DNA of 64,000 nt from a virus (taxonomy: Duplodnaviria > Caudoviricetes): IMG/VR virus record IMGVR_UViG_3300022752_000013. One strand, 5' to 3'. The translations under genes were made by a program, and so were the position numbers. Numbering within the stretch: position 1 is the stretch's first letter; each line of letters opens with the position of its first letter. Shown here one piece after another: positions 5,242-57,490 of the stretch. Under the pieces are notes generated by a model. It searched no databases. It was given only the letters and a program-made list of their open reading frames with translations, and was not told the DNA's origin.

Positions 5242-6135
5242 ATGAGCAAAAACCGTTTCGAACAACTGATCGAATACGTCATCAATGACGAAGAAGCCAA
5301 AGCAAAAGAACTTTTTCACCAAATTGTGGTGGAAAAAAGTCGTGCTATCTATGAAGACCTCATGGATGAAGACAATGCCATGGGTGAAGAACCCACAGAG
5401 ATTGACACCAATGTAAGCGAAGAAACTGACGCCGAGCGTGATGATCACGCTGAACGTGCAGGTCGTAAAGTTGCTAAAGATATTGAATACGACGAGAAAC
5501 ACGGTCGTTACAATGAAGACCTTGGTGGAAGCCAAGCCCAAGACATGATTGACGATGTTGAAGCAGAAGAGCAAGGCATGGCAGAAGACGACATGGATGC
5601 TGAGTTTGATGACAAGGCCGAAGAAGCCGGCAAAGACATGACACAGGACATGGAAGACGAACACGACGACGGCGAACTTGAGAACCGTGTGGTTGATTTG
5701 GAAGACAAATTAGACGAACTCATGGCAGAATTTGAAGCCATGATGGACGGTGGCAACGGTGCTGACATGGGCGATACACCTGACATGACAGACATTGAAG
5801 TTCAGGACGATGAGTTGGAAACTGAAGGCATGATGCCAATGGAAGAAGCCATCAGTCTCAAGCAAGTACACCCAAAAACAACTACGCAAGAAGCACCAGG
5901 TACAGACACAAAGTCAATTGTTGCTGCCAATTCTGGCGCACGTGGCGCAATGGCACAACCAGTCAAAATGACTGGAGACACGGCACAAGGTCGTCCTGCT
6001 CCAACTACTAAAGACTTGATTGGCCGAGTGGGCAACTCACCTGCTCAAGGCGTACAAAGTCCCAAGGCAGCACCAAAGCCAGTGACATCACAAGCCGCAG
6101 GCGTAAACACACGTACACCTTTTCCAAAGGCTTAA
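5242..6135 (+). CDS. Acidic prohead core protein (gp67-like N-terminus, long acidic extension)
   Basis: Position between gp20 and gp21; N-terminal helix FEQLIEYVINDEEAKAKELF; very D/E-rich middle; basic Pro-rich tail; AGGAG SD. Confidence 0.65.
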   Translation: MSKNRFEQLIEYVINDEEAKAKELFHQIVVEKSRAIYEDLMDEDNAMGEEPTEIDTNVSEETDAERDDHAERAGRKVAKDIEYDEKHGRYNEDLGGSQAQDMIDDVEAEEQGMAEDDMDAEFDDKAEEAGKDMTQDMEDEHDDGELENRVVDLEDKLDELMAEFEAMMDGGNGADMGDTPDMTDIEVQDDELETEGMMPMEEAISLKQVHPKTTTQEAPGTDTKSIVAANSGARGAMAQPVKMTGDTAQGRPAPTTKDLIGRVGNSPAQGVQSPKAAPKPVTSQAAGVNTRTPFPKA

Positions 6136-6141
6136 CCGGTC

Positions 6142-6789
6142 ATGAGATACTTACAAGAGCATTTGAACTTTAATCAGGCCAAGATTCGCGTCTTGTTCGA
6201 GGATGCTCCTGACGGCAAAGGCCCTTTCAACGGCAAAAACTTGTACATGGAGGGTATATGTATCGAAGGCGGAGTAAAGAACGCCAACGAACGTGTGTAC
6301 CCCGTGAATGAAATTGCCAAGGCTGTGGACACCATCAACAAACAAGTTGTGGAAGGCTACAGCGTGATGGGCGAAGTCGATCACCCAGAAGATCTCAAAA
6401 TCAACTTGGATCGTGTTAGTCATACCATTGACAAAATGTGGATGGATGGGCATTGCGGTTACGGTAAGTTGAGAATTATTCCAACGCCAATGGGACAACT
6501 GGTCAAGACCATGTTGGATTCTGGCGTCAAACTCGGAGTTTCGAGCCGTGGTTCCGGTAACGTGAACGACGGCAACGGACATGTCAGTGACTTTGAAATT
6601 GTCACTGTCGATGTTGTTGCTCAACCCAGCGCCCCACATGCTTATCCCAAAGCCATCTACGAAGGACTTCTCAACATGAAGTACGGACATAGAGTTTTGG
6701 AAGCGGCAAGAGACGCAGGCAAGGACAACAAGGTACAGAGATATTTGCAGGCCGAGGTAACTCGACTGATCAAAGATCTCAAAATATAA
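6142..6789 (+). CDS. gp21: Prohead protease
   Basis: NANERVYP, GEVDHP, GVSSRGSG, VDVVAQPSAP motifs of T4 gp21. Confidence 0.96.
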   Translation: MRYLQEHLNFNQAKIRVLFEDAPDGKGPFNGKNLYMEGICIEGGVKNANERVYPVNEIAKAVDTINKQVVEGYSVMGEVDHPEDLKINLDRVSHTIDKMWMDGHCGYGKLRIIPTPMGQLVKTMLDSGVKLGVSSRGSGNVNDGNGHVSDFEIVTVDVVAQPSAPHAYPKAIYEGLLNMKYGHRVLEAARDAGKDNKVQRYLQAEVTRLIKDLKI

Positions 6790-22847: not shown

Positions 22848-25800
22848 ATGTCATTTCCAGTATCACCCACAAATGGACAAGTAACCGTAGTAAACCAAGT
22901 ATCGTACCAGTATTCTAGTGCGACCAATTCCTGGACCAGAATTTTATCCACAGCCAACGTTATCACAGCCAACACAATTGCTGTAAACGGTGCGCTCACA
23001 GTGGGCACAACAATCAGTGCAATTGGCAACATAACTGGTAGTTATTTCTTTGGTAATGGCTCGCAACTGACCGGACTGGCAGCCGGAACTGCTAACACAG
23101 CATTGTCACTGGTCAACGGTAACACAAATCTTACCACAGCAACCAATGGCAACGCTAACTTGACCATTGGTGGAACTTCAAATGTGGTTGTGTGGGCAAC
23201 TACTGGACAATTTGTAACTGGTGTATTAAGCGCAAACGGCACTGTCACCGGCGGCAACTTGGTCACCGGCGGATTTGTAAGTGCCACTGCCAACGTAACT
23301 GGTGGCAACATCTTAACAGGTGGCCTGATAAGTGCCACAAGCACAGTAACTGGATCAACGCTGATTGGTACTGTGGTCACAGCAAGTGGCAACGTAACTG
23401 GTGGCAACGTCTTAACAGGCGGCTTAATTTCAGCCACAAGCACTATCACAAGTGCGGCAAACATCACAGGTGGTAATTTATTAACTGGCGGGCTAGTATC
23501 TGCCACGGCCAACGTCACAGGTGGTAATGTATTAACAGGTGGACTTGTAAGTGCCACTGCCAACGTAACTGGTGGAAACTTGCTTACAGGTGGCCTGATA
23601 AGTGCCACAAGCACAATTACCAGCGCCGCTAATATTACAGGCGGTAATATCTTAACTGCTGGTTTAGTATCAGCCGGAAGCACAATTACTGGTACAACAT
23701 TGATTGGATCAGTTGTCACTGCAAGTGGTAACATCACAGGTGGCAATGTTTTAACTGGCGGACTAATAAGTGCCACTTCGACAATTACAAGTGCGGCCAA
23801 TATCACAGGTGGCAACTTGCTTACAGGTGGCTTAGTATCAGCCACTGCCAACATAACCGGTGGTAACATCTTGACAGGTGGACTTGTATCAGCAACAGGT
23901 AATGCTATATTTGGCAACATCAGCACCACCGGTGCTAGTGGTAATATTTCGGGTGCCAACGTAATTTCTAGCACCACACTCAGTGCCACAGGCAACGTAA
24001 TTAGTGGCAACGTAACAACAGGTGGATTGATCACAGCAACTGGTAACATAACCGGTGGTAATGTTTTAACTGCTGGTCTAGTGTCAGCAACTGGTAACGT
24101 AACTGGTAACTATATTTTGGGTAATGGTGCTTTCCTGAGCGGCGTTATTACCTCAGTAGCCAATATCAACAATGGCACATCAAACGTTACAGTGGTAAGT
24201 TCTGGTGGCAACGTCACAGTTGGCATTGGTGGAACATCAAATATTGCTGTGTTTGCCACCACAGGTGAATATGTAACAGGCATAATCAGTGCCAGTGGCA
24301 ACATCATATCAGCCGGCAACGTGTCAGGTGGCAACATCTTAACCGGTGGATTAGTAAGTGCCACAGCCAACGTCACAGGCGGCAACTTGCTGACAGGTGG
24401 ACTAGCAAGCGTTACAGGCAACGTCACAGGTGGTAATGTCTTAACAGGCGGACTGGTATCCGCAACCGCTAACGTAACTGGTGGTAATATTTCTACTGGT
24501 GGTGTGGTAACTGCCGCAGGCAATGTGTTTGGTAACAACATTTTTGCCACAACATCAGTAAGCACAGCAGGCAACGTGATTGCCGGCAACGTGAATACCG
24601 CTACTATTAGACCAACTAGTGGTGCATTGACAGTTAGTACTGCCTCGGGTGATATAAACTTAAATCCTGCTGGTAACGTTGTGCTGGCAAGTGGCAATAC
24701 TTTCATCAACAACTTGGCTCAGCCAGTACAAAATCAAGATGCGGCAACCAAACTTTATGTTGATAACCTTGCTTCAACTGGCATCACATATCACGAAGCA
24801 GTATATGTAGCCACCACAGCCAACTTGGCCACAACCACAGGCGGTACTATTACGTATGCTCAACCAAATGGTGCGGCAAACGGTGTTGGTGCAACGCTGA
24901 CAACAACCACGTCGTTCAACTTGATCGACACAGCCAACGTTCAAACAGTTGGTACACGTATTTTGGTCAAAGATCAGGGCAATGCTGTGCAAAACGGTGT
25001 GTATACCTGGGCCAACGCCACTGTTATTGTGCGTTCAACTGACACTGATCAATACGGTTCTGACAGCACAGAATCATTCAGTATCAACGACTACTTCTTT
25101 ACTTCAAACGGTAACGTCAATGCTGGCACAGCCTTTATTGTTAGTGCTCCAGCAGGAACTATTACGTTTGGTACATCGAATATCACATTTGCCATATTCA
25201 GCCAAAGCACAACTTATACTGCCAATACTGCGGCTGGTTTGAGCCTGACAGGCACTGTATTTTCAGCCAAAGTAGACAACACTACCACAGCATTTGATGG
25301 AGGTGGCAACATTATTGTCAAAGCCAGTGCTAACCTTACTACACCAAACATTGGTGCGGCAACTGGTACAAGTTTAAACACAACCGGCAATGTTGACGCA
25401 GGCAACCTACGCACAGGTGGATTGGTAACTGCTACAGGTAACGTCACAGGCGGCAATATCTTGACAGGTGGCCTAGTATCGGCTGCTGCCAACGTTACCG
25501 CTAACAATGGTATGTTTACCACAATTGTAAACACAGCCAGTTTCACTGGTAGTGTAGCATCATTGAGTGGCAACGTCACAGGTGGCAATATCCTAACAGG
25601 TGGTTTAGTATCGGCCACTGCTAACGTAACTGGTGGCAACTTGCTTACAGGTGGATTAATATCAGCCGCAAGTACCATTACTGGCACAACATTGATTGGC
25701 TCAGTTGTCACAGCAAGTGGTAATGTAACTGGTGGCAACATCTTAACAGGTGGATTGATAAGTGCCACATCAACAATTACTAGTGCCGCCAACATCACTG

Positions 25801-27897: not shown

Positions 27898-30800
27898 ATG
27901 GCCTTTCCAACGTCGCCGACGAATGGGCAGATTACAGTTGTTAATAACGTTTCGTACCAGTACTCAAACGTTAGTAACGCTTGGACTCGTGTCCTTTCAA
28001 CTGCCAACATCATTACCGCTAACACAATTGTTTCCAATGGTTATATCAGTGCCGCTGGAAACATCTTAACAGGCAACTATTTTATTGGTAACGGTTCGTT
28101 ACTAACTGGTATTGCCACAGGAACACCCACACAAATAGTCAGCGGCACATCAAACGTAAGTGTTGTGAGTTCTGGTGGCAATGTCACAGTTGGTGTTGGT
28201 GGCACATCAAACGTGGCAGTGTTTGCCACCACAGGCGAATACGTAACTGGTATTGTTTCAGCAAGCGGAAACATCATAAGTGCAGCCAACATAACTGGTG
28301 GAAATTTATTAACTGCTGGATTAGTCAGTGTTACTGGCACACTCAGTGTAAGTGGAGCGACCACGCTTGCCAACCTCAGCGCCGGCAACATTTCATCAGG
28401 TAGCATAAGTTCTGGCGGAGCAATAAGTGCCAGTGGTAACATCACAGGTGGCAATTTATCAGGTACTAACATTGTTGGTACACTGACCACAGCCGCTCAA
28501 ACTAACATCACAAGCGTTGGCACATTGGGCTCGTTGGCCGTTACTGCCAACGTAACTGGTGGTAACATACTCACAGCAGGACTAGTGTCAGCAACTGGTA
28601 ATGTCACTGGTAACTTCTTTATTGGTAACGGATCACAGTTAACTGGTATTGCCACAGGAACGCCCACACAAATAGTCAGCGGCACATCAAACGTAAGTGT
28701 TGTGAGTTCTGGTGGTAATGTCAGCATTGGTATAGGTGGCACATCAAATGTGGCAGTATTTGCCACAACAGGTGAATATGTAACTGGATTAATATCAGCC
28801 AGTGGTAACATCACAGGTGGCAATGTACTAACTGGTGGATTGATATCTGCAACATCAACTATTACTAGTGCCGCTAATATCACAGGTGGAAATGTACTAA
28901 CTGGTGGATTAGTATCAGCAACTGCCAACATCACCGGTGGAAATGTTTTAACTGGCGGCCTTGCCTCAGCAACTGGCAACATCACCGGCGGTAATTTATT
29001 AACTGCTGGATTAGTATCAGCAACTGCCAACATAACTGGTGGCAATGTACTAACTGCCGGTATAATAAGTGCCACTGGTACCATCACCACAGCAGGCAAC
29101 ATAAGTCTAACTGGTAATATTGTTGACATAGGTGAATTGTGGATCAATACCTCAGCCAACGGCAACATCAATCTCAATGCCAATGGAACAGGACAAATCA
29201 ACATACCTGTGGGTATTTTGAGTGTAACCAGCAACATACAAGGTGGCAATTTAAGAACAGCAGGACTTGTTAGTGCAACTGCCAACATCACAGGCGGTAA
29301 CTTACTTACTGCGGGCCTAATATCAGCAACCAGTACAGTAACTGGATCAAGTTTCCTAGGCACAGTAGTAAGTGTCACAGCCAACATAACTGGTGGTAAT
29401 TTATTAACTGGTGGATTGATAAGTGCTACGTCAACTGTTACATCGGCCGCCAACATAACTGGTGGTAACTTACTCACTGGTGGACTTGTTAGTGCTACTG
29501 CCAACATAACTGGTGGTAACATATTAACAGGTGGTATTATAAGTGCTGTTGGTAATATTACCGCAGGAACTGGTAATTTCTTTATTGGTAATGGATCACA
29601 ACTAACAGGTATCAATGCTAGTACCAGTGGATTCCCAATCACTGCTGGCAACTCAAATATTGCGGCCACTGCCAATGGCAATATTGCTATTACTGTAGGT
29701 GGCACAGCCAACGTATCGGTATTTGCCACAACAGGTCAATACATAACTGGACTAATTAGTGCCAATGGTAACGTAACAGGTGGCAATATCTTAACAGGTG
29801 GCCTGGTCAGTGCCACTGCCAACGTCACCGGTGGTAACTTGTTGTTTGGATCTGGTGTTGTTTCGGGAACTGGTAATGTGTATGCCAACAACGGCATATT
29901 CACCACAATTGTAAACACAGCCAGTTTCACTGGTAGTATTGTTTCAGTAACAGCCAATGTCACAGCCGGTAATATCTTAACTGGTGGCCTGGTTAGTGCC
30001 ACTGCCAATGTTACGGGTGGTAACATATTAACAGGTGGATTAGTATCGGCTACAGCCAACGTTGTAGCCAACAATGGTATGTTCACTACGATTGTGAACG
30101 TGGCCAGTTTCACTGGTAGTATTGTTTCAGTAACCGCCAACGTTACAGGTGGTAACATATTAACAGGTGGATTAGTATCTGCCGCGGCCAATGTAACGGC
30201 CAACAATGGTATGTTCACTACAATTGTGAACACAGCCAGTTTCACTGGTGGACTGGTATCAGTAACTGGTAACGTCACCGCCAACAATGGTATGTTCACC
30301 AACATTGTGAACGTGGCCAGCCATACAGGTGCTGTGGTCAGTGTCAGTGGTAATGTTACTGGTGGCAACATATTAACAGGTGGATTAGTATCAGCCACAG
30401 CCAACGTTATAGCCAACAATGGTATGTTCACTAACATTGTGAACGTGGCCAGTTTCACTGGTGGACTGGTATCAGTAACTGGTAACGTCACCGCCAACAA
30501 CGGCATGTTCACCACAATTGTGAACACAGCCAGTTTCACTGGTAGTGTGGCATCATTGAGTGGCAACGTAACAGGTGGCAATGTCTTGACTGCTGGATTA
30601 ATCTCAGCCACTTCGACAATCACAAGTTCAGCAAACATCACAGGTGGTAATTTATTAACTGGTGGCTTAGCAAGTGTTACTGGTAACGTGATTGCCGGAA
30701 ATGTAAACACCAGCACAGTTAGACCCACCAGCGGTGCGTTGACACTGAGTACTGCATCGGGCAATTTAAATTTAAATCCTGCTGGTAATATTGTTCTAAG

Positions 30801-33780
30801 TGCCAATACCTACATCAACAACTTGGCGAGTCCAGCACAAGCGGCAGATGCCGCCACCAAAGAATATGTTGACAACTTTGCGGCGCAAGGAATCACATAT
30901 CACTCACCAGTGAGTGCTGCCACCACAACCACATTGGCCACAACCACAGGTGGTGCAATTACCTATGCCCAGCCCAATGGAGCCGCCAATGGTGTTGGTG
31001 CAACTCTAACAACTACCACAACGTTCAATTTGATTGACACAGTAAACGTTCAGACCTTAGGAACTCGTATCCTGGTCAAGAACGAAGGCAACGCTGTATT
31101 CAATGGTATCTATACCTGGTCAAATGCCACTGTTATTGTGCGTTCAACTGACGCTGATGAATATGGCTCAAACAGTTCAGAACAACTGAGTCTAAACGAC
31201 TATTTCTTTGTGTCAAACGGCAACGTCAACATTGGCAGTGCTTTTGTTGTTAATGCACCTGCCGGTACAATCACGTTTGGTACGTCAAACATTACATTTG
31301 CTCAGTTTAGTTCAAGCCAGGTTTACACAGCCAACACTGCCGCAGGTCTAAGTTTAACTGGTACCGTGTTCTCGGCCAAGGTAGATAACACTACCACTGC
31401 CTTTGATGGCACAGGTAACATCATTGTCAAAGCATCAGCCGCGTTGACCACACCCAACATTGGTGCCGCAACAGGTACAAGTTTGAGTGTTACAGGCAAC
31501 GTCACTGGCGCTAACTTAAACACTGGTGGATTGATCACAGCAACTGGTAATGTAACTGCTGGTAACCTATTAACTGCTGGACTAATTAGTGCCTCAAGTA
31601 CTATTACTGGTACAAGTCATTTGGGTGCAGTTGTATCTGTAACAGCCAACGTCACAGCCGGTAATATCTTAACTGGTGGTTTGATTAGTGCCACAGCCAA
31701 CGTCACAGCCGGTAATATCTTAACTGGTGGATTAGTATCAGCCACAGCCAACGTTATAGCCAACAATGGTATGTTCACCACGATTGTGAACACAGCCAGT
31801 TTCACTGGTGGCATTGTATCAGTAACTGGTAACGTCACCGCCAACAACGGCATATTCACCACAATTGTGAACACAGCCAGTTTCACTGGTGGTATAGTAT
31901 CAGTCACAGGTAATGTAACAGCCAACAATGGTATGTTTACTAATATTGTGAACGTGGCCAGTCATACAGGTGGCCTTGTTTCTGTTACTGGTAACGTAAC
32001 TGCCAACAACGGCATATTCACCACAATTGTAAACACAGCATCACATACAGGTACTATCGTATCTGTAACAGGCAACGTCACAGCCGGTAACATCTTAACA
32101 GGTGGTTTGGTCAGCGCCACTGCTAATATTACTGGTGGCAACATTCTAAGTAATGCACAACTGAGTGTGGTCGGTAACATTGTTCAAAGTGCCGCAAACT
32201 CGTTTATTGCTCACAGTTATGCGCAAACACTCACAGGTAACGGTACTGTACAAGCCAACGCTTATGTAATTACAGCAACCAACAACCAGTTTACTACTGT
32301 AGCATCAGGAGCCGGTGCTATATTGCCAGCAGGATTGCCGGGTCAAATTGTGTTTGTGGCCAACGACTCTACAGCAAATGCTTTGTTGATATACCCACCA
32401 GTTGGCGGATTAATCGACCAGGCTGCAGCCAACGCCGCAATTTCAGTCAGCCCTCTTGGCATGTGGATGGGTACAGCACTTGGTGCAAACGTATGGACCA
32501 CAATCAGTCCAGACACTCTTGGTACTACCAACCAAATTACAGCAACACAAGGCAATGGTGTAGTAACCATTGCTCTTGCAACTAGTCCGTCAGTAAGTGG
32601 CAACATCACCGGTGGTAACATATTAACAGGTGGTTTGATCAGTGCCACTGCCAACGTGATCGCCAACAACGGAATATTCACCAACATAGTAAACACTGCT
32701 AGTTTCACTGGTGGACTTGTATCGGTTACTGGTAACGTAACTGCCAACAATGGCATGTTCACCACGATTGTGAACGTGGCCAGCCACACAGGTGCTGTGG
32801 TATCAGTTACAGGCAACGTAACAGGTGGCAACTTATTAACTGGTGGCCTGGTCAGTGCTACAGGCAACGTTACAGGTGGAAATATTATTACCAGCGGCAC
32901 GGGTGGAAATATTTCAGGCGCCAACATAATTTCTGCCACCACATTCAGTGCTACAGGCAACGTTATAAGTGGCAATATCTTGACAGGTGGCCTGATATCA
33001 GCAACATCAACTATAACTTCAGCAGCCAACATAACAGGTGGAAACATCTTAACTGGTGGCTTGATATCAGCAACAAGTACGGTAACTGGATCATCGTTTA
33101 ATGGTGCTGGAACTGGATTGACTGGAACAGCGGCATCGTTAACTGTGGGCAGTGCAACCACTGCAACCACGGCAGGCACAGTGACCACAGCCGCACAACC
33201 AAACATCACAAGTGTTGGCACACTGACTTCGGTCACTGTTAGTGGCAATGCCACTGGCGGCAATTTGTTAACTGCCGGATTGATTTCAGCAACTGGTAAC
33301 GTGACCGGCGGTAACATATTGACTGCTGGATTAATTTCAGCGGCCAGTACCATAACCGGCACAAGTTTCTTGGGTGCAGTAGTATCTACAACTGGCAACG
33401 TAACCGGTGGCAATATCTTAACTGCTGGTGTAGTATCAGCAACCGGCAACGTCTCTGGTAATTTCTTTATTGGTAATGGTGCGTTTTTAACCGGACTCAG
33501 TGCAGGATCTGCTTCTAACATTGCCAATGGTGCTACGACTATTACTATTCCAGTTGCTTCGGGCAACATAGCAATGAGTGTGGCAGGGCAGTCAAACACT
33601 GTGGTTATTAACCTGGGTAGTTTTACCATGTACGGTACATTTGCCGGGCCAAAAACACTGGCAGCAAACGTGGCTGTGGCAGATGCAGTAAATGCTATGC
33701 TAATAGGGCCAGTTACATTGGGCAACGGGTTTAACATTTCAGTGCCTAATTCGTCAACATTATATGTTTACGCACCATAA
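27898..33780 (+). CDS. Giant repeat fibre (1960 aa)
   Basis: N-terminus paralogous to 22848 (M.FP.SPTNGQ.TVVN.VSYQYS); 17/23/27-aa repeats; shared DAATKxYVD domain. Confidence 0.78.
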   Translation: MAFPTSPTNGQITVVNNVSYQYSNVSNAWTRVLSTANIITANTIVSNGYISAAGNILTGNYFIGNGSLLTGIATGTPTQIVSGTSNVSVVSSGGNVTVGVGGTSNVAVFATTGEYVTGIVSASGNIISAANITGGNLLTAGLVSVTGTLSVSGATTLANLSAGNISSGSISSGGAISASGNITGGNLSGTNIVGTLTTAAQTNITSVGTLGSLAVTANVTGGNILTAGLVSATGNVTGNFFIGNGSQLTGIATGTPTQIVSGTSNVSVVSSGGNVSIGIGGTSNVAVFATTGEYVTGLISASGNITGGNVLTGGLISATSTITSAANITGGNVLTGGLVSATANITGGNVLTGGLASATGNITGGNLLTAGLVSATANITGGNVLTAGIISATGTITTAGNISLTGNIVDIGELWINTSANGNINLNANGTGQINIPVGILSVTSNIQGGNLRTAGLVSATANITGGNLLTAGLISATSTVTGSSFLGTVVSVTANITGGNLLTGGLISATSTVTSAANITGGNLLTGGLVSATANITGGNILTGGIISAVGNITAGTGNFFIGNGSQLTGINASTSGFPITAGNSNIAATANGNIAITVGGTANVSVFATTGQYITGLISANGNVTGGNILTGGLVSATANVTGGNLLFGSGVVSGTGNVYANNGIFTTIVNTASFTGSIVSVTANVTAGNILTGGLVSATANVTGGNILTGGLVSATANVVANNGMFTTIVNVASFTGSIVSVTANVTGGNILTGGLVSAAANVTANNGMFTTIVNTASFTGGLVSVTGNVTANNGMFTNIVNVASHTGAVVSVSGNVTGGNILTGGLVSATANVIANNGMFTNIVNVASFTGGLVSVTGNVTANNGMFTTIVNTASFTGSVASLSGNVTGGNVLTAGLISATSTITSSANITGGNLLTGGLASVTGNVIAGNVNTSTVRPTSGALTLSTASGNLNLNPAGNIVLSANTYINNLASPAQAADAATKEYVDNFAAQGITYHSPVSAATTTTLATTTGGAITYAQPNGAANGVGATLTTTTTFNLIDTVNVQTLGTRILVKNEGNAVFNGIYTWSNATVIVRSTDADEYGSNSSEQLSLNDYFFVSNGNVNIGSAFVVNAPAGTITFGTSNITFAQFSSSQVYTANTAAGLSLTGTVFSAKVDNTTTAFDGTGNIIVKASAALTTPNIGAATGTSLSVTGNVTGANLNTGGLITATGNVTAGNLLTAGLISASSTITGTSHLGAVVSVTANVTAGNILTGGLISATANVTAGNILTGGLVSATANVIANNGMFTTIVNTASFTGGIVSVTGNVTANNGIFTTIVNTASFTGGIVSVTGNVTANNGMFTNIVNVASHTGGLVSVTGNVTANNGIFTTIVNTASHTGTIVSVTGNVTAGNILTGGLVSATANITGGNILSNAQLSVVGNIVQSAANSFIAHSYAQTLTGNGTVQANAYVITATNNQFTTVASGAGAILPAGLPGQIVFVANDSTANALLIYPPVGGLIDQAAANAAISVSPLGMWMGTALGANVWTTISPDTLGTTNQITATQGNGVVTIALATSPSVSGNITGGNILTGGLISATANVIANNGIFTNIVNTASFTGGLVSVTGNVTANNGMFTTIVNVASHTGAVVSVTGNVTGGNLLTGGLVSATGNVTGGNIITSGTGGNISGANIISATTFSATGNVISGNILTGGLISATSTITSAANITGGNILTGGLISATSTVTGSSFNGAGTGLTGTAASLTVGSATTATTAGTVTTAAQPNITSVGTLTSVTVSGNATGGNLLTAGLISATGNVTGGNILTAGLISAASTITGTSFLGAVVSTTGNVTGGNILTAGVVSATGNVSGNFFIGNGAFLTGLSAGSASNIANGATTITIPVASGNIAMSVAGQSNTVVINLGSFTMYGTFAGPKTLAANVAVADAVNAMLIGPVTLGNGFNISVPNSSTLYVYAP
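31759..32082 (+). repeat. 81-bp (27-aa) tandem repeat, 4 copies
   Basis: gccaacaa(t/c)gg at 31759, 31840, 31921, 32002; unit ANNG(M/I)FT.IVN.AS(F/H)TGG.VSVTGNVT. Confidence 0.9.
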
Positions 33781-47521: not shown

Positions 47522-48007
47522 ATGACCCGTAAACTAGAAGAACTTTTTGATTTACCCCCAAACGATAGTCCTGAAATTGAGGATGCTCCTTCTATTGAAG
47601 AAACACGCACCTACATTGCTGAGATAGATGATACCATTGACAAGATAGATGCGGCCTTACCGGGTGTGCGTGATCTCAGTGCCAGCGACGTTGAGATGGA
47701 TGATTTGGCAGCCAAAGCAACCAAGAGTTTTGATGACTTGATGGATTTGGGGATGAATATTGATTCAAGATTTGCCGCAGAAATCTTTGGCGTAGCCGGC
47801 ACAATGTTGGGTCATGCACTCACAGCCAAGACAGCCAAACTAAACAAAAAACTAAAAGTGATTGATCTACAGTTGAAAAAAGCCCGACTGGATCAACAAA
47901 ACCCTGACGACGCACCCACACAGCCGGGCCAAGGCCATGTGCTGGACCGCAACGAAATTCTAGAACGCTTGATTGGCGATAGAAGAACAATCGGCAAAAA
48001 AGAATAA
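47522..48007 (+). CDS. Putative terminase small subunit (gp16-like)
   Basis: Helical DDLAAKA...DLMDLG...AEIFGVA...NKKL pattern; late promoter at 47512-47517. Confidence 0.5.
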   Translation: MTRKLEELFDLPPNDSPEIEDAPSIEETRTYIAEIDDTIDKIDAALPGVRDLSASDVEMDDLAAKATKSFDDLMDLGMNIDSRFAAEIFGVAGTMLGHALTAKTAKLNKKLKVIDLQLKKARLDQQNPDDAPTQPGQGHVLDRNEILERLIGDRRTIGKKE

Positions 48008-48027: not shown

Positions 48028-48636
48028 ATGAAGACATTTCATCAATATCTCGCAGAATCTGAGCGCACATACGACTACAGGATCAAAATACTGGGCGACG
48101 TGCCGCAGGAATTCATCAAAAATCTCGAAGAAAAAATGGCGCAGTTTGACATTGTCAAACTTAGTCGCCCTAAAACTACACCTGTGCAAAAGTTGCAAAA
48201 AGACTTTCCAGGCGCAGAAAATCAAAGCGTGACTTTCATGGACGTGAGTTTTAGATACCCTGCTATCGAGCCACAGATCAAACAGTTGGCACAGTTGTTG
48301 GGTCTCAATCCCAACTCGATAACTTTGCAAACACAGGCCTATGATGACAGTATCACAAAAGAGATTGCAGACATCACAGCACAGAACACGGACCTGATCG
48401 CTGACACAGATTATCCTGCACCCGATGCAGAACAGCGAGCCCTGAGCCAAGACTACTCGGCCAACCCATATCAACATGCAGTATTGCGGAACGAATATCG
48501 TTCAGACTTTACTGTGGCTGGCGGCAAAACACCTCCTGCAAAAACCACAAATGATATTCCCACACAGAACAAGAGCCCGTTCAACAATATCAAGCGTCAA
48601 CCCCGCCCAGCAACTGGTGCCAACCCAAGAGGATAA
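48028..48636 (+). CDS. Putative internal head protein with capsid-targeting-like N-terminus
   Basis: Begins MKTFHQYLAE (T4 IP targeting sequence is MKTYQEFIAE); TAAATA 48005-48010. Confidence 0.55.
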   Translation: MKTFHQYLAESERTYDYRIKILGDVPQEFIKNLEEKMAQFDIVKLSRPKTTPVQKLQKDFPGAENQSVTFMDVSFRYPAIEPQIKQLAQLLGLNPNSITLQTQAYDDSITKEIADITAQNTDLIADTDYPAPDAEQRALSQDYSANPYQHAVLRNEYRSDFTVAGGKTPPAKTTNDIPTQNKSPFNNIKRQPRPATGANPRG

Positions 48637-48640
48637 TATA

Positions 48641-50830
48641 ATGAATAATTTTTTCTACGACTTAAACAAACGCATGGCCGACCTAGGCCAACAACAAACT
48701 CTTACAGAAGGTGCAGTTGCTGAAGCCAGTTACTCAGCCAAGGCTGCCAGAGCCGGCAAAGACATTGGCAAGCCAGGCAAGAACTTTTCAAAGATTGCTG
48801 CCGATGCAGGCCAGCGTTATGGTTCCAAGGCCGCCGGTGAGCGTGTGGCAGGTGCTGTGCTAAACAAACTGCGTAATCCCAAAGAAAGCATGGAAGAAGG
48901 TCAACTCAATGAACTAAGTCCTGAACTGCTAAAGAGAGCAAGAGATGCGGCGGGTATGAAATATGCTGATGCTGACGATCGCCGAGATCAAAAAGCATCT
49001 GACAAATACAATAGACTAGATGACAAGTTCAATAGTGCCTTGCGTAAAAAACAAAAAGGCATGGCAGAAGCCGAACTTGATGAAGTCAGTCGTGGTGAGT
49101 ATATTAAACAACAAGATACTGCCGCAGAAAAGTCTGGCAAACAAAAATTCAATGCTTTTGGTCAGACATTTGATACAGATGAAATTGATGAAGGTGGCCT
49201 GCCAATGACCACAGTCAACGGAAAACGAGTTCCAAAATTTGCGGCTGATGGTCAAGGTGCTAATGACCTTGCCAAGAAAAAATCATTCAATGACAAGATT
49301 GCCGGCGCCAAACAAGAAGTTGAAGAAATGTTGGGCGACGTAGCAGCCGAAGCCATGCGTAGTGCATTAGGTGGCAAGAAGCAAGTGGCCGATGAAGGCT
49401 TTGATGACATGGAACGTGATGTCAAGCGTCGACTGAGCACTCCCAAAGTTGGTGATGTCAAGCGTGGCGCACGTCACGACATTGAGACTACAGCCACTGG
49501 CGTCCGTGCCACACGTCGTCACGATGACGAAGAAGATACTCAACCCACAGGCGAAAAGCGCCGGGCCGGACGTCCAAAAGGCGCTGACAAAGGTCCAGAG
49601 CGTGTGACAGGCAAAGCCTACAAACACAAAGGTGGTCGCAAAACCAACGAAAATGATCTTGACATTACAGATCGTGGCGAGTATGATCAAGAAGGTGACA
49701 TGGCCAAAGACAGCATCAAGACTGTGGTGCGTCATGCACAGGCCTTGGAAAAGATCCTGGGCGACAATGACAACCTGCCAGAATGGGTACAATCCAAGTT
49801 GGCCAAGATCGAAAGCATGATAACTGCTGTGGACGACTACATGCAGAATCAAGAGGACGATGATCAGCCACTTGATGAAAAAGCAGTCAGCAAAAATCAA
49901 GCCGTTGCGGCTCGTATTGCTCGTGGCGTTCAGAAAGGTGAAGCAAAAGCCAAGCCAGGTTCTGCCAGTGCTGAAATGGCCAAGATGGAACCCAAAGAAC
50001 TCAAGAAATTTGCAAAGACTGACACCAAGGGATTGCCAAAGAAAAAGAAAGAAGTTGAAGAAACAACTACCTCTGGATCAGTTGCCACAGGTAGTGACGC
50101 TCCCAAAGCCAGCAAAGGTGGCATGCAAGTTGGCAAGGGCATTTACGACAGTTTGAATCGCAAGGTCGAAGGCATGATTGCTGAGTCAATGAGTATAAAC
50201 GTGAGTATGACCAAAGATGACAACGGTTCACACAAGAATATCACTGTCACAGCATCCGACGAGGATGCTGAGGCTCTGGCACAGTTGTTGCGCAGTGCAG
50301 GTTTAGGCGGTGATATGTCCAATGGTCATGCTGAGCCTTGCCCTGCCTGCGGATCAACTGATTGTGGTTGCGATCAAGGCATGGCAGAAGCATATGGTGA
50401 TACTGATGCTTCACAAAATGAACCCAATTGGCCCACCGACACTGAATACAGTGACGACGCCATGCAATACTCCGGAGGCTTGAACGGCCCCAAGAGCACT
50501 GGACAAACCACTGTGCCTGTTATTGCTCACCAAGGCGAACGCACTGGTGTAGATGACGAAGAACTGCGCCGCATGATGGAAATGGCCGGCATACAACAGA
50601 ATCTCAAGCCATGGGAACGTACCATGAAGGAAGCGGCTGTTGAAGAAGGCGTTGTTGACAAAGTCAAAGACGTTGTGAAAAAAGGCCTTGAGAAACTGGG
50701 GCACGGTTCCGACGAAGACATGCGCAAAGACTTGCAAAAGAAAATGGGTGTGCCACCAACAGGCGAAAAACCAGCGGACAAGAAGATGGAAGAAAGCCTG
50801 ATGCAAGAGTTTGCCAACTTCCGGATCTGA
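48641..50830 (+). CDS. Modular polyprotein-like putative internal head protein (729 aa)
   Basis: ATG 48641 after GAGGA; basic modules separated by LTE/VAE/MEE/MAE/LDE/IDE/VEE sites; AT-hook-like RRAGRPKG; DUF3008-like module. Confidence 0.6.
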   Translation: MNNFFYDLNKRMADLGQQQTLTEGAVAEASYSAKAARAGKDIGKPGKNFSKIAADAGQRYGSKAAGERVAGAVLNKLRNPKESMEEGQLNELSPELLKRARDAAGMKYADADDRRDQKASDKYNRLDDKFNSALRKKQKGMAEAELDEVSRGEYIKQQDTAAEKSGKQKFNAFGQTFDTDEIDEGGLPMTTVNGKRVPKFAADGQGANDLAKKKSFNDKIAGAKQEVEEMLGDVAAEAMRSALGGKKQVADEGFDDMERDVKRRLSTPKVGDVKRGARHDIETTATGVRATRRHDDEEDTQPTGEKRRAGRPKGADKGPERVTGKAYKHKGGRKTNENDLDITDRGEYDQEGDMAKDSIKTVVRHAQALEKILGDNDNLPEWVQSKLAKIESMITAVDDYMQNQEDDDQPLDEKAVSKNQAVAARIARGVQKGEAKAKPGSASAEMAKMEPKELKKFAKTDTKGLPKKKKEVEETTTSGSVATGSDAPKASKGGMQVGKGIYDSLNRKVEGMIAESMSINVSMTKDDNGSHKNITVTASDEDAEALAQLLRSAGLGGDMSNGHAEPCPACGSTDCGCDQGMAEAYGDTDASQNEPNWPTDTEYSDDAMQYSGGLNGPKSTGQTTVPVIAHQGERTGVDDEELRRMMEMAGIQQNLKPWERTMKEAAVEEGVVDKVKDVVKKGLEKLGHGSDEDMRKDLQKKMGVPPTGEKPADKKMEESLMQEFANFRI

Positions 50831-50831
50831 T

Positions 50832-51704
50832 ATGAAAACACTACGTGATTATTTGGCAGAAGCAGAAACAGAACAACATCACCCACGAACCGGTGATGTG
50901 TTTGCCTTTGAACTGGAAGATGGCACCTTGCTTGAAACCTATGTAATGGATCAAGACGATCGTGGTGATATCTTGTTGGATTCCACAGATCAAATCTATT
51001 CATTGCTGGAAGAGTGGGGCCTGTTGGGCGCAAGTGATGCTGTGATGGAATCATTGACCCTTAAAGAGTTTGCACCCAGCAATGGTGGCGACAGTGGCAA
51101 CTATCTCAAAGCCTTGGCTTCGGCCTGGTACAATCATGACATTGAAATGTTGCAAGACATTGTGAAACAAGGCGGCAGCCCAATGAGTCGGATCATTGAT
51201 GCACAAGTGGCAGTGGAAAAAATCCTGGGTCGCGGCATTGTGTGCGGTGATGGTAAAGTGCGCAAATATCACATTGATTATAATAGTGACTTTGATGGTG
51301 TGGAAATCTACAGCGATGACTACTACGAACACGGTGATCATGATGCCACATTAGACAGTCGTACAGGTCAACCCTGGGGACCATACGAGCACGTGGAGTT
51401 CAAGGATGATGATCTAGACGAAAGTATCGACGAAGCCAAGTATCAAGGTCGCGAAGTTCCACTGGGCAAGAAAATGAAGGGCGACGTCAAAAAATTCAAG
51501 GTTTATGTGCGTAATCCCAAAACTGGCAACATCAAAAAAGTCAACTTTGGTCACGGAGGCACCAGTGCCAAACGTGCCGGACAAAAGACCATGAGTATCA
51601 AACGATCCAACCCTGCACGGCGCAAGAGTTTTAGAGCAAGACACAACTGTGACAATCCTGGACCAAGAACAGGGGCCAGATACTGGTCGTGCAGAAACTG
51701 GTAA
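50832..51704 (+). CDS. Putative internal head protein: acidic N-terminal modules plus basic C-terminal module
   Basis: Begins MKTLRDYLAE; after SIDE comes a K/R-rich module ending RRKSFRARHNC...ARYWSCRNW. Confidence 0.6.
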   Translation: MKTLRDYLAEAETEQHHPRTGDVFAFELEDGTLLETYVMDQDDRGDILLDSTDQIYSLLEEWGLLGASDAVMESLTLKEFAPSNGGDSGNYLKALASAWYNHDIEMLQDIVKQGGSPMSRIIDAQVAVEKILGRGIVCGDGKVRKYHIDYNSDFDGVEIYSDDYYEHGDHDATLDSRTGQPWGPYEHVEFKDDDLDESIDEAKYQGREVPLGKKMKGDVKKFKVYVRNPKTGNIKKVNFGHGGTSAKRAGQKTMSIKRSNPARRKSFRARHNCDNPGPRTGARYWSCRNW

Positions 51705-52216: not shown

Positions 52217-52591
52217 GTGCGAGCCAGCGAATTCTTAACGGAGCAACACAACGGGGAAATCAGCAAGCGGCACCGTTATGCCACAGTGGGTCTAAACACG
52301 TTTGGCGACGCTGAGCGTATGGATGGCGGCTATACTGCATACAGAGTCATGATGGCCAGTGCCATGGCCGATGGCACCAACAAACCCATTGACATTGACG
52401 CCAAGAGTTGGCATGGCAAAAGAAAAACAGCACATCCTTACACTCAAGCGGAACAAAACATGCTGAAGCAGGCCTTTAAGGCAGTGGGCGCAGACTGGCA
52501 AGACCTAAACCACGGTGACTTGGCGAGCGATGAACCGCCAGGTGGCAACACCAAAAGTCCTATAGAAGGATTTAAAGGATATCCCAGATGA
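52217..52591 (+). CDS. Putative internal head protein, paralogue A
   Basis: GTG start; MRASEFLTE...SPIEGFKGYPR. Confidence 0.6.
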   Translation: MRASEFLTEQHNGEISKRHRYATVGLNTFGDAERMDGGYTAYRVMMASAMADGTNKPIDIDAKSWHGKRKTAHPYTQAEQNMLKQAFKAVGADWQDLNHGDLASDEPPGGNTKSPIEGFKGYPR

Positions 52592-52974
52592 GAGCCCGAG
52601 AGTTTATCACTGAAGAAAAAACTTTGCCACCAGAGCAAGCAGACCCCATGAATCATGTGTTTGTATTGCCCGGTGTGCAATCTAGTGATCCTTATCAAAT
52701 ATATCGACTGGGTGTGGCCATGGCCCGAGCCCGTAGTGATGCTGGCACACAAGATCCCATACCCTACATGCCTGCTTGGAGTGCCAAGGCCGTATTTGGT
52801 GAAGAAGCAGTGATTGCCGGATTCAATGCTTCAGTAGAACCAATTATTGATCAAGCATTAAAAATGGCAGGACTATCGGGTGGCAAAGTACAAGTCAGTA
52901 CACCAAACAGCCTTGAGCCTGCTTCTGTGGACACGCAAAGTCCTGTTCGAGGATTCCGAGGCTATCCACGTTAA
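52588..52974 (+). CDS. Putative internal head protein, paralogue B
   Basis: MRAREFITE...SPVRGFRGYPR. Confidence 0.6.
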   Translation: MRAREFITEEKTLPPEQADPMNHVFVLPGVQSSDPYQIYRLGVAMARARSDAGTQDPIPYMPAWSAKAVFGEEAVIAGFNASVEPIIDQALKMAGLSGGKVQVSTPNSLEPASVDTQSPVRGFRGYPR

Positions 52975-53005: not shown

Positions 53006-53824
53006 ATGAACAAAATTCTCGCCTTGTTGATTTTGGCTGTGAGTCTTTCGGCTCAAGCCTGGGAACAACGTGCGCCAAACCCAGTGCAGGCATGCGCTGT
53101 ACATAGCCCATACGGATTTGCCACAGTCAAGCGGCCTGTACAGGCCATATGCCGTGAAGCATATCTTGTGGCATATGATGCTCCTGTAAAGATTCCTGCT
53201 TATGTGGCCTACACATTACTACCACAGAACGCACTAGGTTGCTTTCCTAGAACAAATGCGTTTGTTGCTGATCAAAGTTTAAATGGTACAGGTGCTAGAC
53301 CAGATGACTATGCTGGTACAGGCTACGACAAAGGACATGCCGCACCAGACGGTGACTTGTCATGGTCGGCACAAGTAGAATACGAATCATTCTTGATGAC
53401 CAACATGTATCCACAACACGGATCACTTAACCGTGGCATTTGGAAACTGTTAGAAACAGCAGTACGTGGATGGACTGTACAACTAAATCAACCTTTTACA
53501 ATTTATGTAGGTGCATTGTATGGGGCAGGTGACGAGTCGATCGGCAATGGAGTCGTTGTGCCACATGGCTACTACAAGATTGTGATCAACAACGCAACCA
53601 AGCAGGCCGCAGGTTGGGTATTCCCACACACCAAACCCTATGTTAACTTGGGTAACGACCTAACTGTGTTCCGTCGGTCCATTGCAGAGATAGAAAAAGT
53701 GGCCGGCGTAGACTACAAGTTCCCCGCAGGTGTTACGGAAGTACAACCCGGTCAAGAATGGCCTGTGGACTTTGGTGCATTGACAAATGCCAAAAGAGCC
53801 AAGTGTGGTCGTAATGCAGAATAA
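53006..53824 (+). CDS. DNA/RNA non-specific endonuclease (NucA/EndoG family) with signal peptide
   Basis: YDKGHAAP, SFLMTNMYPQHGSLNRGIWKLLE, VPHGYYKIV; N-terminus MNKILALLILAVSLSAQA is Sec-like. Confidence 0.92.
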   Translation: MNKILALLILAVSLSAQAWEQRAPNPVQACAVHSPYGFATVKRPVQAICREAYLVAYDAPVKIPAYVAYTLLPQNALGCFPRTNAFVADQSLNGTGARPDDYAGTGYDKGHAAPDGDLSWSAQVEYESFLMTNMYPQHGSLNRGIWKLLETAVRGWTVQLNQPFTIYVGALYGAGDESIGNGVVVPHGYYKIVINNATKQAAGWVFPHTKPYVNLGNDLTVFRRSIAEIEKVAGVDYKFPAGVTEVQPGQEWPVDFGALTNAKRAKCGRNAE

Positions 53825-55516: not shown

Positions 55517-57490
55517 ATGGCAGCAAACTCACCCGGACAACAACTAAACGATTTATTGGTCACTAGAAATTTTGACCCTGAAGCACTAGATGCACGAACT
55601 GGCAAGCCGCCCCTGGACGACCAGGGTGCTCCTGATCCTGAAAATGCGGACATGTTTACATTTGACTGGGTAGCAGACTCCGGCAAGAACTACGGCACAG
55701 TGGTTTGCTTGCTGGGCGCTGACAACAACTTTGAAGTTTATTTTGGCGACAATCTTGGCCGCGGTATGGAGTTTGACGACAAGGCTGACTGGTACGAATT
55801 CCTGGACCAGTTGCGTAACTTTGCCAAACGCAATCTCTTGCGTTACGACCTGCAGAACCTACGTAGACTCAAGTATACTATGGCCGGAATGGCTGCCATC
55901 AAAGAAGGCCTGTTTGAAGGCTACTATGGCAACAAAAAGGTGAGTTATGCTGGTGAGCCCACACAGGCACGACTCATGATCAAACACAATCGCACCCTGG
56001 GTGAAAACGATGCACGTTTCCGCTATGTGGAAAGCCTGTTCATTGAAACAGTGGCAGGCGAAGTGTTCAAAATGCCGTTCAAGAAACTGGCCGGCGGACG
56101 AGCCATGCTGGAACATGTGCGTCACGGTGGCACACCTTATGATGCTCGTGGACAACACATTGTAGAAATTGTTGAACAGATCAATGTGCTGAGTCAGTTC
56201 CGTAGAGCACATCAAGGTCGAGTATTTGAAGGTGCTGCCGGCGAACTGGTAGCAGAAACAACAGAATACTTGAATCGACTGCGTCACAATCTCAAGGCAG
56301 TGAGCAACGATCGCGGTTACACCCAATACTTTGAATCATGGAGCCCGGCTGATGTGTCGGAATCAGATCTCATAGTGGAAGATTTAAAAAGCCTCTTTGT
56401 GGAAACACGTATCGATCCACGCATAGAGCAAGCGTTGCCCATGTTGGCACGAATACAAAAGGAAGCACTAGCCATGAAAGAAGCAGAAATATTTGAATCC
56501 TGGGCCAATCGTATTGTAGAAGGTACCTGGACATTACCGGAAACTCCTGAGCAACAAGATGAACTCAAGATGTTGATGAGTCGACCCTTGACAGTGGGCG
56601 CGGATGGCATGAATGCCACAGAACAACTGTATGGCTTGATTGGTGACGATGAGTTGTTTGACATCATTGGCAACATTGCTGAAGAAAATCCAGATGCTAA
56701 TTGCTGGGATGATCCGCGTGTACAGGACCGACTGGAAGAACTAGGCGTGTACATGGTCACACCAGCAGAACCTGCTCAGGCAGCCGAAACACCTCCCGTG
56801 GCTGAAGGCAGACCAGAAGACTTACCAGGTATTGATTACGACCGTCCTGGTGATGTAAAACGTAAACAACCCGGCGGTGATGATGATCAAAATCCTTATC
56901 CCTACAGTCCAGAAGAAGATGATGACTACTTCCGTGAAATCTTCCGCAAGAAGCGTGAAGCCGCCAAACAGCAAGGCATGGCGGAAGGCAATATGGATGG
57001 TAAAGCAGCCGACATCAAAGGACAGATAGCAGAACTGGAAGCCGAGCAAGAAGAATATGAATTTGGCTCTTATGCCTATGACACGGTCGATGGCGAACTG
57101 CAATATCTTTACGCAAAACTTGATAAAGCGGAAAAGGGTGTGGCGGAAGGGTTGGGTTATAGTCAAGACCCGGCTCAAGCAAAATGGTATCATGAAGGTC
57201 GCAAGGCATTCAAAGGTGGTACTACTGGTAATCTAATACAAGACATCGCCAAGAAACACGGAGTTCCATCTGAGTGGATTGATGCATTCCATGCCGGATA
57301 TAAAGATCAAGAAGGCTTTGGCAAAGATCCTGTAGACGAAGGTGACAACATGAGCACATTCGAACAAGCCCAGTGCAACCAGACCATGGAAGGCGAATAC
57401 TGCCCAGAACACGGCATGTCCGAGTGCGGCAACTACGGCATGTATGAATCACAATTGGCAAGAATCAAAAGCCTAGCACTACTGCGCTAA
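55517..57490 (+). CDS. Large putative head protein with cassette-like C-terminus
   Basis: TAAATA 55504-55509; C-terminal modules bounded by PVAEG, QGMAEG, KGVAEG, PVDEG; Cys/His-rich terminal motif. Confidence 0.6.
   Translation: MAANSPGQQLNDLLVTRNFDPEALDARTGKPPLDDQGAPDPENADMFTFDWVADSGKNYGTVVCLLGADNNFEVYFGDNLGRGMEFDDKADWYEFLDQLRNFAKRNLLRYDLQNLRRLKYTMAGMAAIKEGLFEGYYGNKKVSYAGEPTQARLMIKHNRTLGENDARFRYVESLFIETVAGEVFKMPFKKLAGGRAMLEHVRHGGTPYDARGQHIVEIVEQINVLSQFRRAHQGRVFEGAAGELVAETTEYLNRLRHNLKAVSNDRGYTQYFESWSPADVSESDLIVEDLKSLFVETRIDPRIEQALPMLARIQKEALAMKEAEIFESWANRIVEGTWTLPETPEQQDELKMLMSRPLTVGADGMNATEQLYGLIGDDELFDIIGNIAEENPDANCWDDPRVQDRLEELGVYMVTPAEPAQAAETPPVAEGRPEDLPGIDYDRPGDVKRKQPGGDDDQNPYPYSPEEDDDYFREIFRKKREAAKQQGMAEGNMDGKAADIKGQIAELEAEQEEYEFGSYAYDTVDGELQYLYAKLDKAEKGVAEGLGYSQDPAQAKWYHEGRKAFKGGTTGNLIQDIAKKHGVPSEWIDAFHAGYKDQEGFGKDPVDEGDNMSTFEQAQCNQTMEGEYCPEHGMSECGNYGMYESQLARIKSLALLR

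Follow-up and report, generated by a model that had tools for sequence, protein, structure and literature searches.

A cassette-built protein of an uncultured jumbo myophage as a candidate Glu-processed internal head polyprotein

A 729-residue protein encoded at 48641..50830 (+ strand) in IMG/VR record IMGVR_UViG_3300022752_000013 was analyzed. The window, which is the whole 64-kb stretch of DNA, comes from an uncultured jumbo myophage. The protein is a chain of cassettes, and the joints between them end in [LIVM]-x-Glu (hxE below; a slash marks the predicted cut after Glu). The joint Glu residues are under selection. The gene is flanked by a gp4-like head-closure gene and a TerS-like open reading frame (ORF) on one side and by the large terminase gene on the other, and one of its cassettes is equivalent to free-standing proteins that carry their own leader. 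The proposed product is an internal head polyprotein, carried as cargo by a jumbo phage of the T4-core kind. Its leader would direct it to the prohead, and the phage's S77 protease would cut it at the joints into about a dozen peptides and a few shorter pieces, some of them likely DNA-binding. The probability of this reading is put at roughly 0.6.

Layout of the 729-residue protein

The ORF is real. It runs from ATG 48641 to the stop codon at 50828–50830 on the + strand, with an AGAGGA ribosome-binding site 7–8 nt before the ATG. The start is shared with the homologues, which open M-x-F-F-Y-D-L-N. An identical protein is present on a 330-kb contig. The parts of the protein are as follows.

48641..48724, + strand: conserved N-terminal leader, residues 1–28, with the doubled joint LTE/GAVAE/ at its end; conservation of at least 90% across 105 divergent homologues at M2, F4, F5, Y6, L8, N9, and E28; predicted local distance difference test (pLDDT) score <50
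48725..48898, + strand: cassette family 5, residues 29–86, basic (12 K/R against 6 D/E), a confident helix hairpin, ending in MEE/
48899..49192, + strand: variable region with spacer GQLNE, accessory cassette 13 (residues 92–143), spacer AELDE, and accessory cassette 19 (residues 149–184); occupancy 38–77% among homologues
49193..49879, + strand: conserved backbone cassettes 8, 0, and 3, residues 185–413, including an AT-hook-like GRP core and a helix-hairpin module (residues 340–413) ending in LDE/; occupancy ~1.0, identity up to 0.95
49880..50062, + strand: cassette 14, residues 414–474, a DUF3008 unit (PF11450; PHROG 30268, 10538, and 28725), strongly basic (17 K/R against 8 D/E), between LDE/ and VEE/
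50063..50581, + strand: conserved backbone cassettes 4, 1, and 2, residues 475–647, with an alpha-beta-beta-alpha unit, a His-rich stretch with a C-x2-C-x4-C-x-C cluster, and joints IAE/S and MAE/A
50582..50830, + strand: C-terminal part with joint MKE/AAVEE/, a second variable slot, cassette 6 (residues 670–718), joint MEE/SLMQE/, and the conserved tail FANFRI followed by the stop codon

Conservation of single residues was read from a separate, more divergent alignment of 105 sequences. The leader is 23 or 28 residues long, depending on which joint of LTE/GAVAE/ is counted as its end. Residues 1–28 are a candidate capsid-targeting propeptide of the longer type found in T4 IPI (19 residues, ITE/A), unlike the 10-residue MKT-type leaders of the neighbouring genes. 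The AT-hook-like KRRAGRPKG is encoded at 49556–49582 (residues 306–314); across the family it reads RGRPKG as a consensus, with G310 never replaced and R311 and P312 kept in at least 90% of sequences. Judged by its letters, the segment fits the AT-hook motif, with a Gly-Arg-Pro core and basic flanks. The isolated cassette 414–474 matched PF11450 (DUF3008) over profile positions 1–57 of 57 with 25.6 bits, above the gathering score of 24; inside the whole protein the score was 18.9 bits, under the gathering score. E515 and E583 are invariant, and at least 90% of the sequences keep C570, C575, and C577. The length of the His-rich stretch ahead of the Cys cluster differs between subfamilies. In one homologue (P0012, residues 572–678), a C-x2-C-G-x3-C-x-C cluster is duplicated directly before a V/M-x-E/A joint. 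Both observations suggest a small metal-binding knuckle.

Self-comparison of the protein gave no internal repeats. Scanned with Pfam and PHROG as a whole and in eight segments, the protein matched DUF3008 only, with no enzyme or peptidase domain. Nine accessory cassettes taken from homologues matched no credible Pfam or PHROG family.

The earlier note on this DNA had named the ORF, a set of Glu-ending linkers, the AT-hook-like and DUF3008-like units, many K/R-rich modules, and a gp21-type protease gene at 6142. The ORF agreed with the ribosome-binding site and the homologue starts, and all of the linkers were found. The AT-hook-like segment was placed correctly and satisfied the motif definition; the DUF3008-like unit at about 49880–50062 was borne out by the full-profile match of the isolated cassette. 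A Peptidase_S77 match confirmed the protease. The K/R-rich character was overstated: of the 11 major cassettes, only four have a clear basic character, and the protein taken as a whole is slightly acidic. The module-by-module profile search proposed there gave DUF3008 for residues 414–474 and no family for the remaining segments.

Motif statistics and selection at the joints

The motif [LIVM]-x-Glu occurs 18 times in the protein, against 10.5 ± 2.8 expected from composition-preserving shuffles (48 of 5,000 shuffles reached 18). By z-score, this excess ranks fourth among 45 ORFs of the window, behind the scaffold protein and two ORFs at 55517 and 50832 (orf55517 and orf50832). Doubled joints of the form hxE-xx-hxE occur five times with a fixed five-residue period (LTE-GAVAE, MEE-GQLNE, MAE-AELDE, MKE-AAVEE, and MEE-SLMQE), where 0.15 would be expected, and not one of 20,000 shuffles gave as many. 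A reading by the phiKZ-type motif [SAG]-x-E was also tried and was rejected, with 13 sites against 16.5 expected and no enrichment.

The joints at 411, 472, 581, and 716 were compared among homologues. The P1 Glu was kept in 107/107 sequences at sites 411, 472, and 581 and in 102/107 at site 716. P3 was M, L, V, or I, except for T, E, or W in up to 7/107 sequences, and P2 was free (G, D, E, A, K, or Q). P3 and P2 thus vary while the P1 Glu is fixed across homologues, which indicates a constraint at the protein level. Among columns with at least 90% occupancy, joint Glu columns were 92% conserved with 0.6% Asp, and other Glu columns were 64% conserved with 12.2% Asp (p about 0.001 for conservation and about 0.01 for Asp). 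At the P2 positions beside the joint Glu, Glu and Asp were swapped freely. In the divergent alignment, six of the nine invariant or near-invariant Glu residues are P1 Glu residues.

T4 gp21 cuts after L/I-x-Glu, and Asp at P1 stops processing (PMC9026906). A fixed P1 Glu, a bar on Asp, and a hydrophobic P3 form a pattern that is unexpected for a passive acidic linker or for DNA microhomology. As read from the alignments, the joints carry the selection signature of a Glu-specific protease site.

Exchange of cassettes among homologues

This is a very large family: 3,277 proteins were recovered by a word-based search and 3,201 cluster representatives at 50% identity by an exhaustive one, all of them metagenomic. 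For the comparison of cassettes, 109 full-length members were aligned (proteins of ~750 residues; alignment of 2,900 columns). The leader aligns collinearly and is well conserved, and so is a backbone at about residues 212–650 that makes up about half of the protein. Content varies at residues 30–215 and in a slot near residues 666–668. Insertions and deletions of at least 15 residues cluster at residues 84–87, 139, 182, 229, 244–251, 411–417, 513, 560, 666–668, and 715, around the hxE joints. In the alignment blocks, differing cassettes are framed by conserved MxE/ and LxE/ joints in most sequences. When homologues were compared with BLAST, alignment ends fell within two residues of an hxE site in 21–26% of cases against 10% for random positions, with modes right at the Glu; these values use related sequences and are descriptive only. 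The control motifs hxD, hxK, and [SAG]xE were at background near the ends.

Cutting the 109 proteins in silico at hxE, followed by clustering, sorted the pieces into 77 cassette families, which combine into 88 architectures. In the common architecture, the order is leader; family 5; variable cassettes; 8-0-(10)-3; 7 or 14; 4-(15)-1-2-(9); variable cassettes; 6; and tail. Families 5 and 12 occur in either order (5-12 or 12-5). Family 5 is exactly duplicated in tandem in P0043 (residues 28–85 and 86–143), each copy running from just past a Glu to the next hxE. Cassette 6, C-terminal here, lies in the N-terminal region of P0077 (E 5e-15). The slot of cassette 14 (DUF3008) holds family 7 instead in most homologues. 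In the variable region at 48899..49192, other homologues carry families 12, 16, 25, 27, 33, 36, and others, most of them bounded by hxE. Boundaries off the joints were seen there for family 16 in P0008, P0011, and P0013 and for fragments in P0021, P0023, and P0036. In the second variable slot, 16 homologues have insertions of 52–133 residues after residues 666–668.

AlphaFold2 prediction from 105 sequences gave beads on a string, with a predicted template modelling score (pTM) of 0.28. The confident units are helix hairpins at 47–77 and 351–405, a beta unit near 270–291, and the alpha-beta-beta-alpha unit at 504–552, with low-confidence stretches between them. Ten of the 18 joint Glu residues lie in the 31% of residues with pLDDT <50 (p = 0.027). 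A separate AlphaFold model of residues 496–584 had low confidence (pLDDT 55). A sequence search against solved structures gave no match, and a protein atlas look-up with the 475–660 core returned only low-scoring viral hypothetical proteins with TM-scores <0.35.

The earlier note had proposed a head polyprotein made of a chain of unrelated modules, with cassettes gained and lost at the linkers; collinearity over the full length, or one fold across the linkers, would have spoken against it. Among the 109 homologues, gains, losses, duplications, and moves were found at the joints or a few residues from them. Collinearity broke down in parts of the homologues, and in the model the linkers are not bridged by one fold. 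The exchange at joints and the protease-type selection on the joint Glu support the proposal. The description as unrelated modules holds for the variable parts and fails for the core, where residues ~212–650 form a fixed collinear backbone.

Genomic setting, neighbouring genes and shared cassettes

Pfam and PHROG scans found a T4-type portal gene at 3115–4893. A gp23-like major capsid protein gene lies at 7922–9133; its product is ~65% identical to the capsid proteins of Vibrio phage 2.275.O and Pseudomonas phage PA5oct, and its propeptide ends in LKE/, the same motif as the joints. A coiled-coil scaffold at 6800–7900 is very rich in hxE (25 sites, z 4.7). The gene of the 729-residue protein lies ~40 kb from this portal–protease–capsid block, and by position it does not fit the T4 scaffold/core (gp22/gp67/gp68) type. 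The TerS-like ORF beside it (47522–48007) matched no terminase family. The genes of the window that bear on the protein are listed here.

5242..6135, + strand: acidic protein between the portal and protease genes, in the position of T4 gp67/gp68; it carries the AERAGRKVAKDIEYDEK cassette, which is family 7 of most homologues (55% identity over 33 residues, E 9e-9), and a weaker second copy
6142..6789, + strand: T4 gp21-type prohead serine protease, the proposed processing enzyme (PF03420 Peptidase_S77, E 7e-25; phrog_207 head maturation protease, E 3e-56)
48028..48636, + strand: upstream neighbour with T4-like capsid-targeting leader MKTFHQYLAE/S, kept in two distant relatives (L002 and L004)
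50832..51704, + strand: downstream neighbour (orf50832) with leader MKTLRDYLAE/A, an acidic part of ~200 residues, joint LDE/SIDE/, and a very basic C-terminal module of ~90 residues; hxE z-score 2.9
52217..52974, + strand: two paralogous small genes with leaders (M)RASEFLTE/ and MRAREFITE/, kept in L002 and L004

The leaders of the four neighbouring genes and the gene order are conserved in both distant relatives. For comparison, the leaders read from the T4 genome are MKTYQEFIAE/A for IPII and IPIII and 19 residues ending in ITE/A for IPI. The C-terminal 93 residues of orf50832 match phrog_7595 over its full length; the basic module is thus the whole of phrog_7595 and is free-standing in other phages. 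This ORF looks like a two-part version of the cassette design.

The cassette at residues 340–413 also occurs free-standing. Proteins of 75 residues consist of a T4-like leader (MKTFKQVRE/A and similar) and this module only, and the set of 75–126 residues with leader MKTFKQ[VL]RE/A includes two-cassette versions. The same cassette forms the C-terminus of a protein of the T4-like cyanophage Synechococcus phage S-H9-1 that opens MKTFKQLRE (L001, 3686–4225). The S-H9-1 protein is a mosaic whose residues 1–63, 67–112, and 124–178 are separate in different cyanophages; residues 67–112 are annotated as DUF6321 in other cyanophage records. A free-standing 66-residue relative of the DUF3008 cassette was also found (P0313).

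Family 7, which is shared with the ORF at 5242–6135, sits in homologues and is absent from the present 729-residue copy. That ORF has ten hxE sites against a shuffle expectation of 7.5 (z 1.1), no excess. It contains two copies of the AE(R/E)AGK..(K/Q)D(I/M)E motif, which forms family 7 and may be a prohead-core binding motif.

The cultured relative PA5oct has a homologue of the upstream gene at 48028–48636, gp0202 (E 7e-11). The slot of the 729-residue gene is occupied by gp0203 (498 residues; L008, 7440–8936), which is acidic and punctuated by hxE. According to the record, both proteins were found in virions by electrospray ionization tandem mass spectrometry (ESI-MS/MS). Processing is not discussed in the PA5oct paper. 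The repeated h-h-x-h-AG-h motifs of gp0203 (ILRLAGV, ISKLAGI, and ILKNAGL) resemble LLRSAGL and MMEMAGI of the 729-residue protein.

Proposed processing and alternative explanations

The conserved N-terminal leader would bring the protein into the prohead core. The S77 protease encoded at 6142–6789 would then cut after the Glu of the [LIVM]-x-Glu joints between cassettes, and each doubled joint would lose a pentapeptide spacer. The products would be about a dozen peptides of 30–150 residues, the leader, several of these spacers, and a few further short pieces. Some pieces have a DNA-binding look, with the AT-hook core, the very basic DUF3008 unit, and the His/Cys cluster, and might act in this way. 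With one short motif at every joint, cassettes could be inserted, lost, duplicated, or moved without harm to the rest. Packaging, cleavage, the retention or ejection of the pieces, and their function are what we infer. The head-cargo reading is supported by the leaders of the neighbouring genes, the free-standing proteins of leader and cassette, the cassette shared with the gene beside the protease, and the mass spectrometry of PA5oct virions.

Several observations count against this reading. The leader differs from the canonical 10-residue MKT-type targeting sequence, and basic character is limited to some cassettes. Tandem joints are common in the closer subfamily only. LPE381 and MME647 lie within confident helical elements (helices or helix hairpins) of the model and are therefore probably structural and uncut. 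IAE515 is at a predicted helix-strand junction, where cleavage may be uncertain, and the C-terminal MEE718 and MQE723 lie in a predicted helix (714–725) and may be uncut. The BLAST-end values are descriptive, and the uncentred residue logo around these ends was blurred, with no clean motif. Alignment of gp0203 with the target family gave an hhalign probability of 0.2, no detectable homology, so that the support from gp0203 is positional only. No full homologue was found among the cultured phages searched; tblastn matched only the 326–404 module, in Synechococcus phages.

An extension of the proposed reading, which is offered tentatively, is a plug-in cargo array. A peptide of any kind, if set between two [LIVM]-x-Glu joints downstream of the leader, would be packaged, cut free, and delivered with the DNA. 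Jumbo phages would thereby diversify injected DNA-binding or anti-defence peptides by shuffling within one gene, and cassettes would pass to and from free-standing internal-protein genes with leaders.

A different explanation, judged unlikely, is that the protein is a sacrificial filler of the prohead core or scaffold. It would be packaged and cut at the same joints, the fragments would exit before DNA entry, and the cassette turnover would be tolerated drift rather than a cargo repertoire. T4 core proteins are indeed cut into many fragments that mostly leave the head (PMC9026906), a cassette is shared with the gene in the gp67/gp68 position, and the protein is mostly predicted to be disordered and is slightly acidic as a whole. 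However, a scaffold (6800–7900) and an acidic core protein (5242–6135) already lie beside the protease. The backbone strongly conserves specific features, namely the invariant GRP core, the Cys cluster, and an NLPEWVQSK hairpin. One cassette is free-standing elsewhere with its own leader, which is the format of the T4 internal proteins retained in the head.

It is rather improbable that the protein is packaged essentially intact, as a long flexible multidomain internal or ejection protein that loses its leader alone and keeps the hxE joints as uncut linkers. The fixed order of the backbone cassettes is in keeping with this, as is the finding that in SPN3US and phiKZ-type phages most cleaved head proteins lose an N-terminal propeptide only, with many uncut (PMC10052503). 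A passive linker, however, gives no reason for the ban on Asp at P1, the hydrophobic P3, and the free P2, and it leaves the doubled joints at exact five-residue spacing unexplained; the leaders of the neighbouring genes and the propeptide of the capsid protein also end in the same motif.

The joints are very improbably, in the main, recombination microhomologies at the DNA level, such as the repeated GGCATGGCAGAAG, unrelated to proteolysis or the head: the P3 and P2 residues vary in amino acid while the P1 Glu is fixed, which is a constraint on the protein, the codons concerned are among the commonest in the window, and a shared protease motif itself supplies microhomology, so that such repeats are compatible with the protease reading. 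The repeats do exist. Three of the four GMAE joints of the window are codon-identical (5575, 49058, and 50378; the 13-nt GGCATGGCAGAAG occurs in three genes in all), with a rough chance of about 0.03; the fourth (56975) has a single base difference, and GGC is the Gly codon in each of the five Gly-Met joints. The shared codons could reflect codon preference or exchange between joints at the DNA level.

Comparison with known systems

The proposed polyprotein resembles the T4 internal proteins in several respects. A gp21-type S77 protease is also present here, and the neighbour leader MKTFHQYLAE compares with MKTYQEFIAE of T4. The candidate targeting leader of the 729-residue protein is conserved and ends in LTE/VAE, as the 19-residue leader of IPI ends in ITE. 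The T-even internal-protein loci vary in content (PMC3012670), as does this locus. Unlike this chain of about a dozen cassettes, the T4 internal proteins are single small proteins from which one cut removes the leader. In the 729-residue protein, the protease motif stands at almost every joint, and variation arises by cassette exchange within the gene, whereas in T4 it arises by gene replacement.

Multiple cuts after Glu by a prohead protease within one polypeptide are known from T4 gp22, gp67, and gp68 and from the propeptides of phiKZ, 201phi2-1, and SPN3US (PMC9026906, PMC10052503). In T4, small fragments of 2.5 and 3.9 kDa stay in the head (PMC9026906, PMC10052503). Those T4 core proteins and phiKZ-type propeptides differ from the present protein in that they are conserved scaffolds or propeptides with mostly discarded fragments. 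The phiKZ group uses A/S/G-x-E, the motif that is not enriched in this protein. No description of site-bounded cassette shuffling in such core proteins or propeptides was found in the literature searched.

Polyvalent proteins (Iyer et al. 2017, PMC5512222) also carry many unrelated modules in one chain, are thought to be delivered with the DNA and processed, and have highly variable architectures. They differ in having enzymatic or anti-defence domains and an embedded metallopeptidase, whereas the modules here are short and mostly non-enzymatic, and processing would occur in trans by the head-maturation protease. As judged by domain content, the 729-residue protein is outside the polyvalent proteins, with neither their domains nor an embedded metallopeptidase. 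The small basic DUF3008 (PF11450) proteins are matched by cassette 414–474 over the whole 57-position profile; unlike them, the unit here is embedded between two protease-type joints of a larger chain. By analogy with these systems, the design appears to combine features of T4 internal proteins and of multiply cleaved core proteins or propeptides in a cassette array. No description of a cassette-array cargo polyprotein was found in the literature searched.

If the proposed reading is correct, uncultured jumbo phages of a large, abundant group load their capsids with a single protease-programmed polyprotein as cargo, in place of separate internal proteins. Built-in modularity would then become part of the T4 internal-protein model and would explain a quick change of the cargo repertoire. 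The uncharacterised peptide families, of which the 109 proteins contain dozens (77), would be candidates for roles in DNA condensation or in acting on the host. With so simple a joint rule, further substrates could be found from sequence alone, and in this window the rule flags orf55517 and orf50832. For engineering, the design might serve as a natural scaffold by which T4-type capsids are loaded with several peptides.

Other features of the window

The ORF at 55517–57490 (orf55517, 657 residues) lies just past the gene of the large terminase and contains 23 hxE sites (z 3.4). Units of 54–65 residues, bounded by VAE/G, GMAE/G, GVAE/G, and VDE/G, make up its C-terminal third. The ORF matched a PHROG "virion structural protein" family weakly. 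From these features it may be a second cassette-type head protein.

Megablast of the locus against cultured phages gave no DNA match. Promoter and terminator scans around the locus gave background level only, and the T4 late box TATAAATA was not enriched (three seen against 1.3 expected). The sole item from the promoter scans was AATAAATA, ~20 nt upstream of 48028.

The ORF at 53006–53824 encodes a DNA/RNA non-specific endonuclease (PF01223, E 5e-38) with a signal-peptide-like N-terminus. It is placed between the cargo genes and the large terminase gene. The relative L004 has an endonuclease in the matching position, and the relative L002 has an SNase-domain protein instead. Three giant ORFs at 12743–20641 (2,632 residues), 22848–27887 (1,679 residues), and 27898–33780 (1,960 residues) are almost without hxE sites. 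The giant ORFs are probably paralogous fibre or tail proteins; those at 22848–27887 and 27898–33780 have near-identical N-terminal peptides, MSFPVSPTNGQVTV and MAFPTSPTNGQITV.

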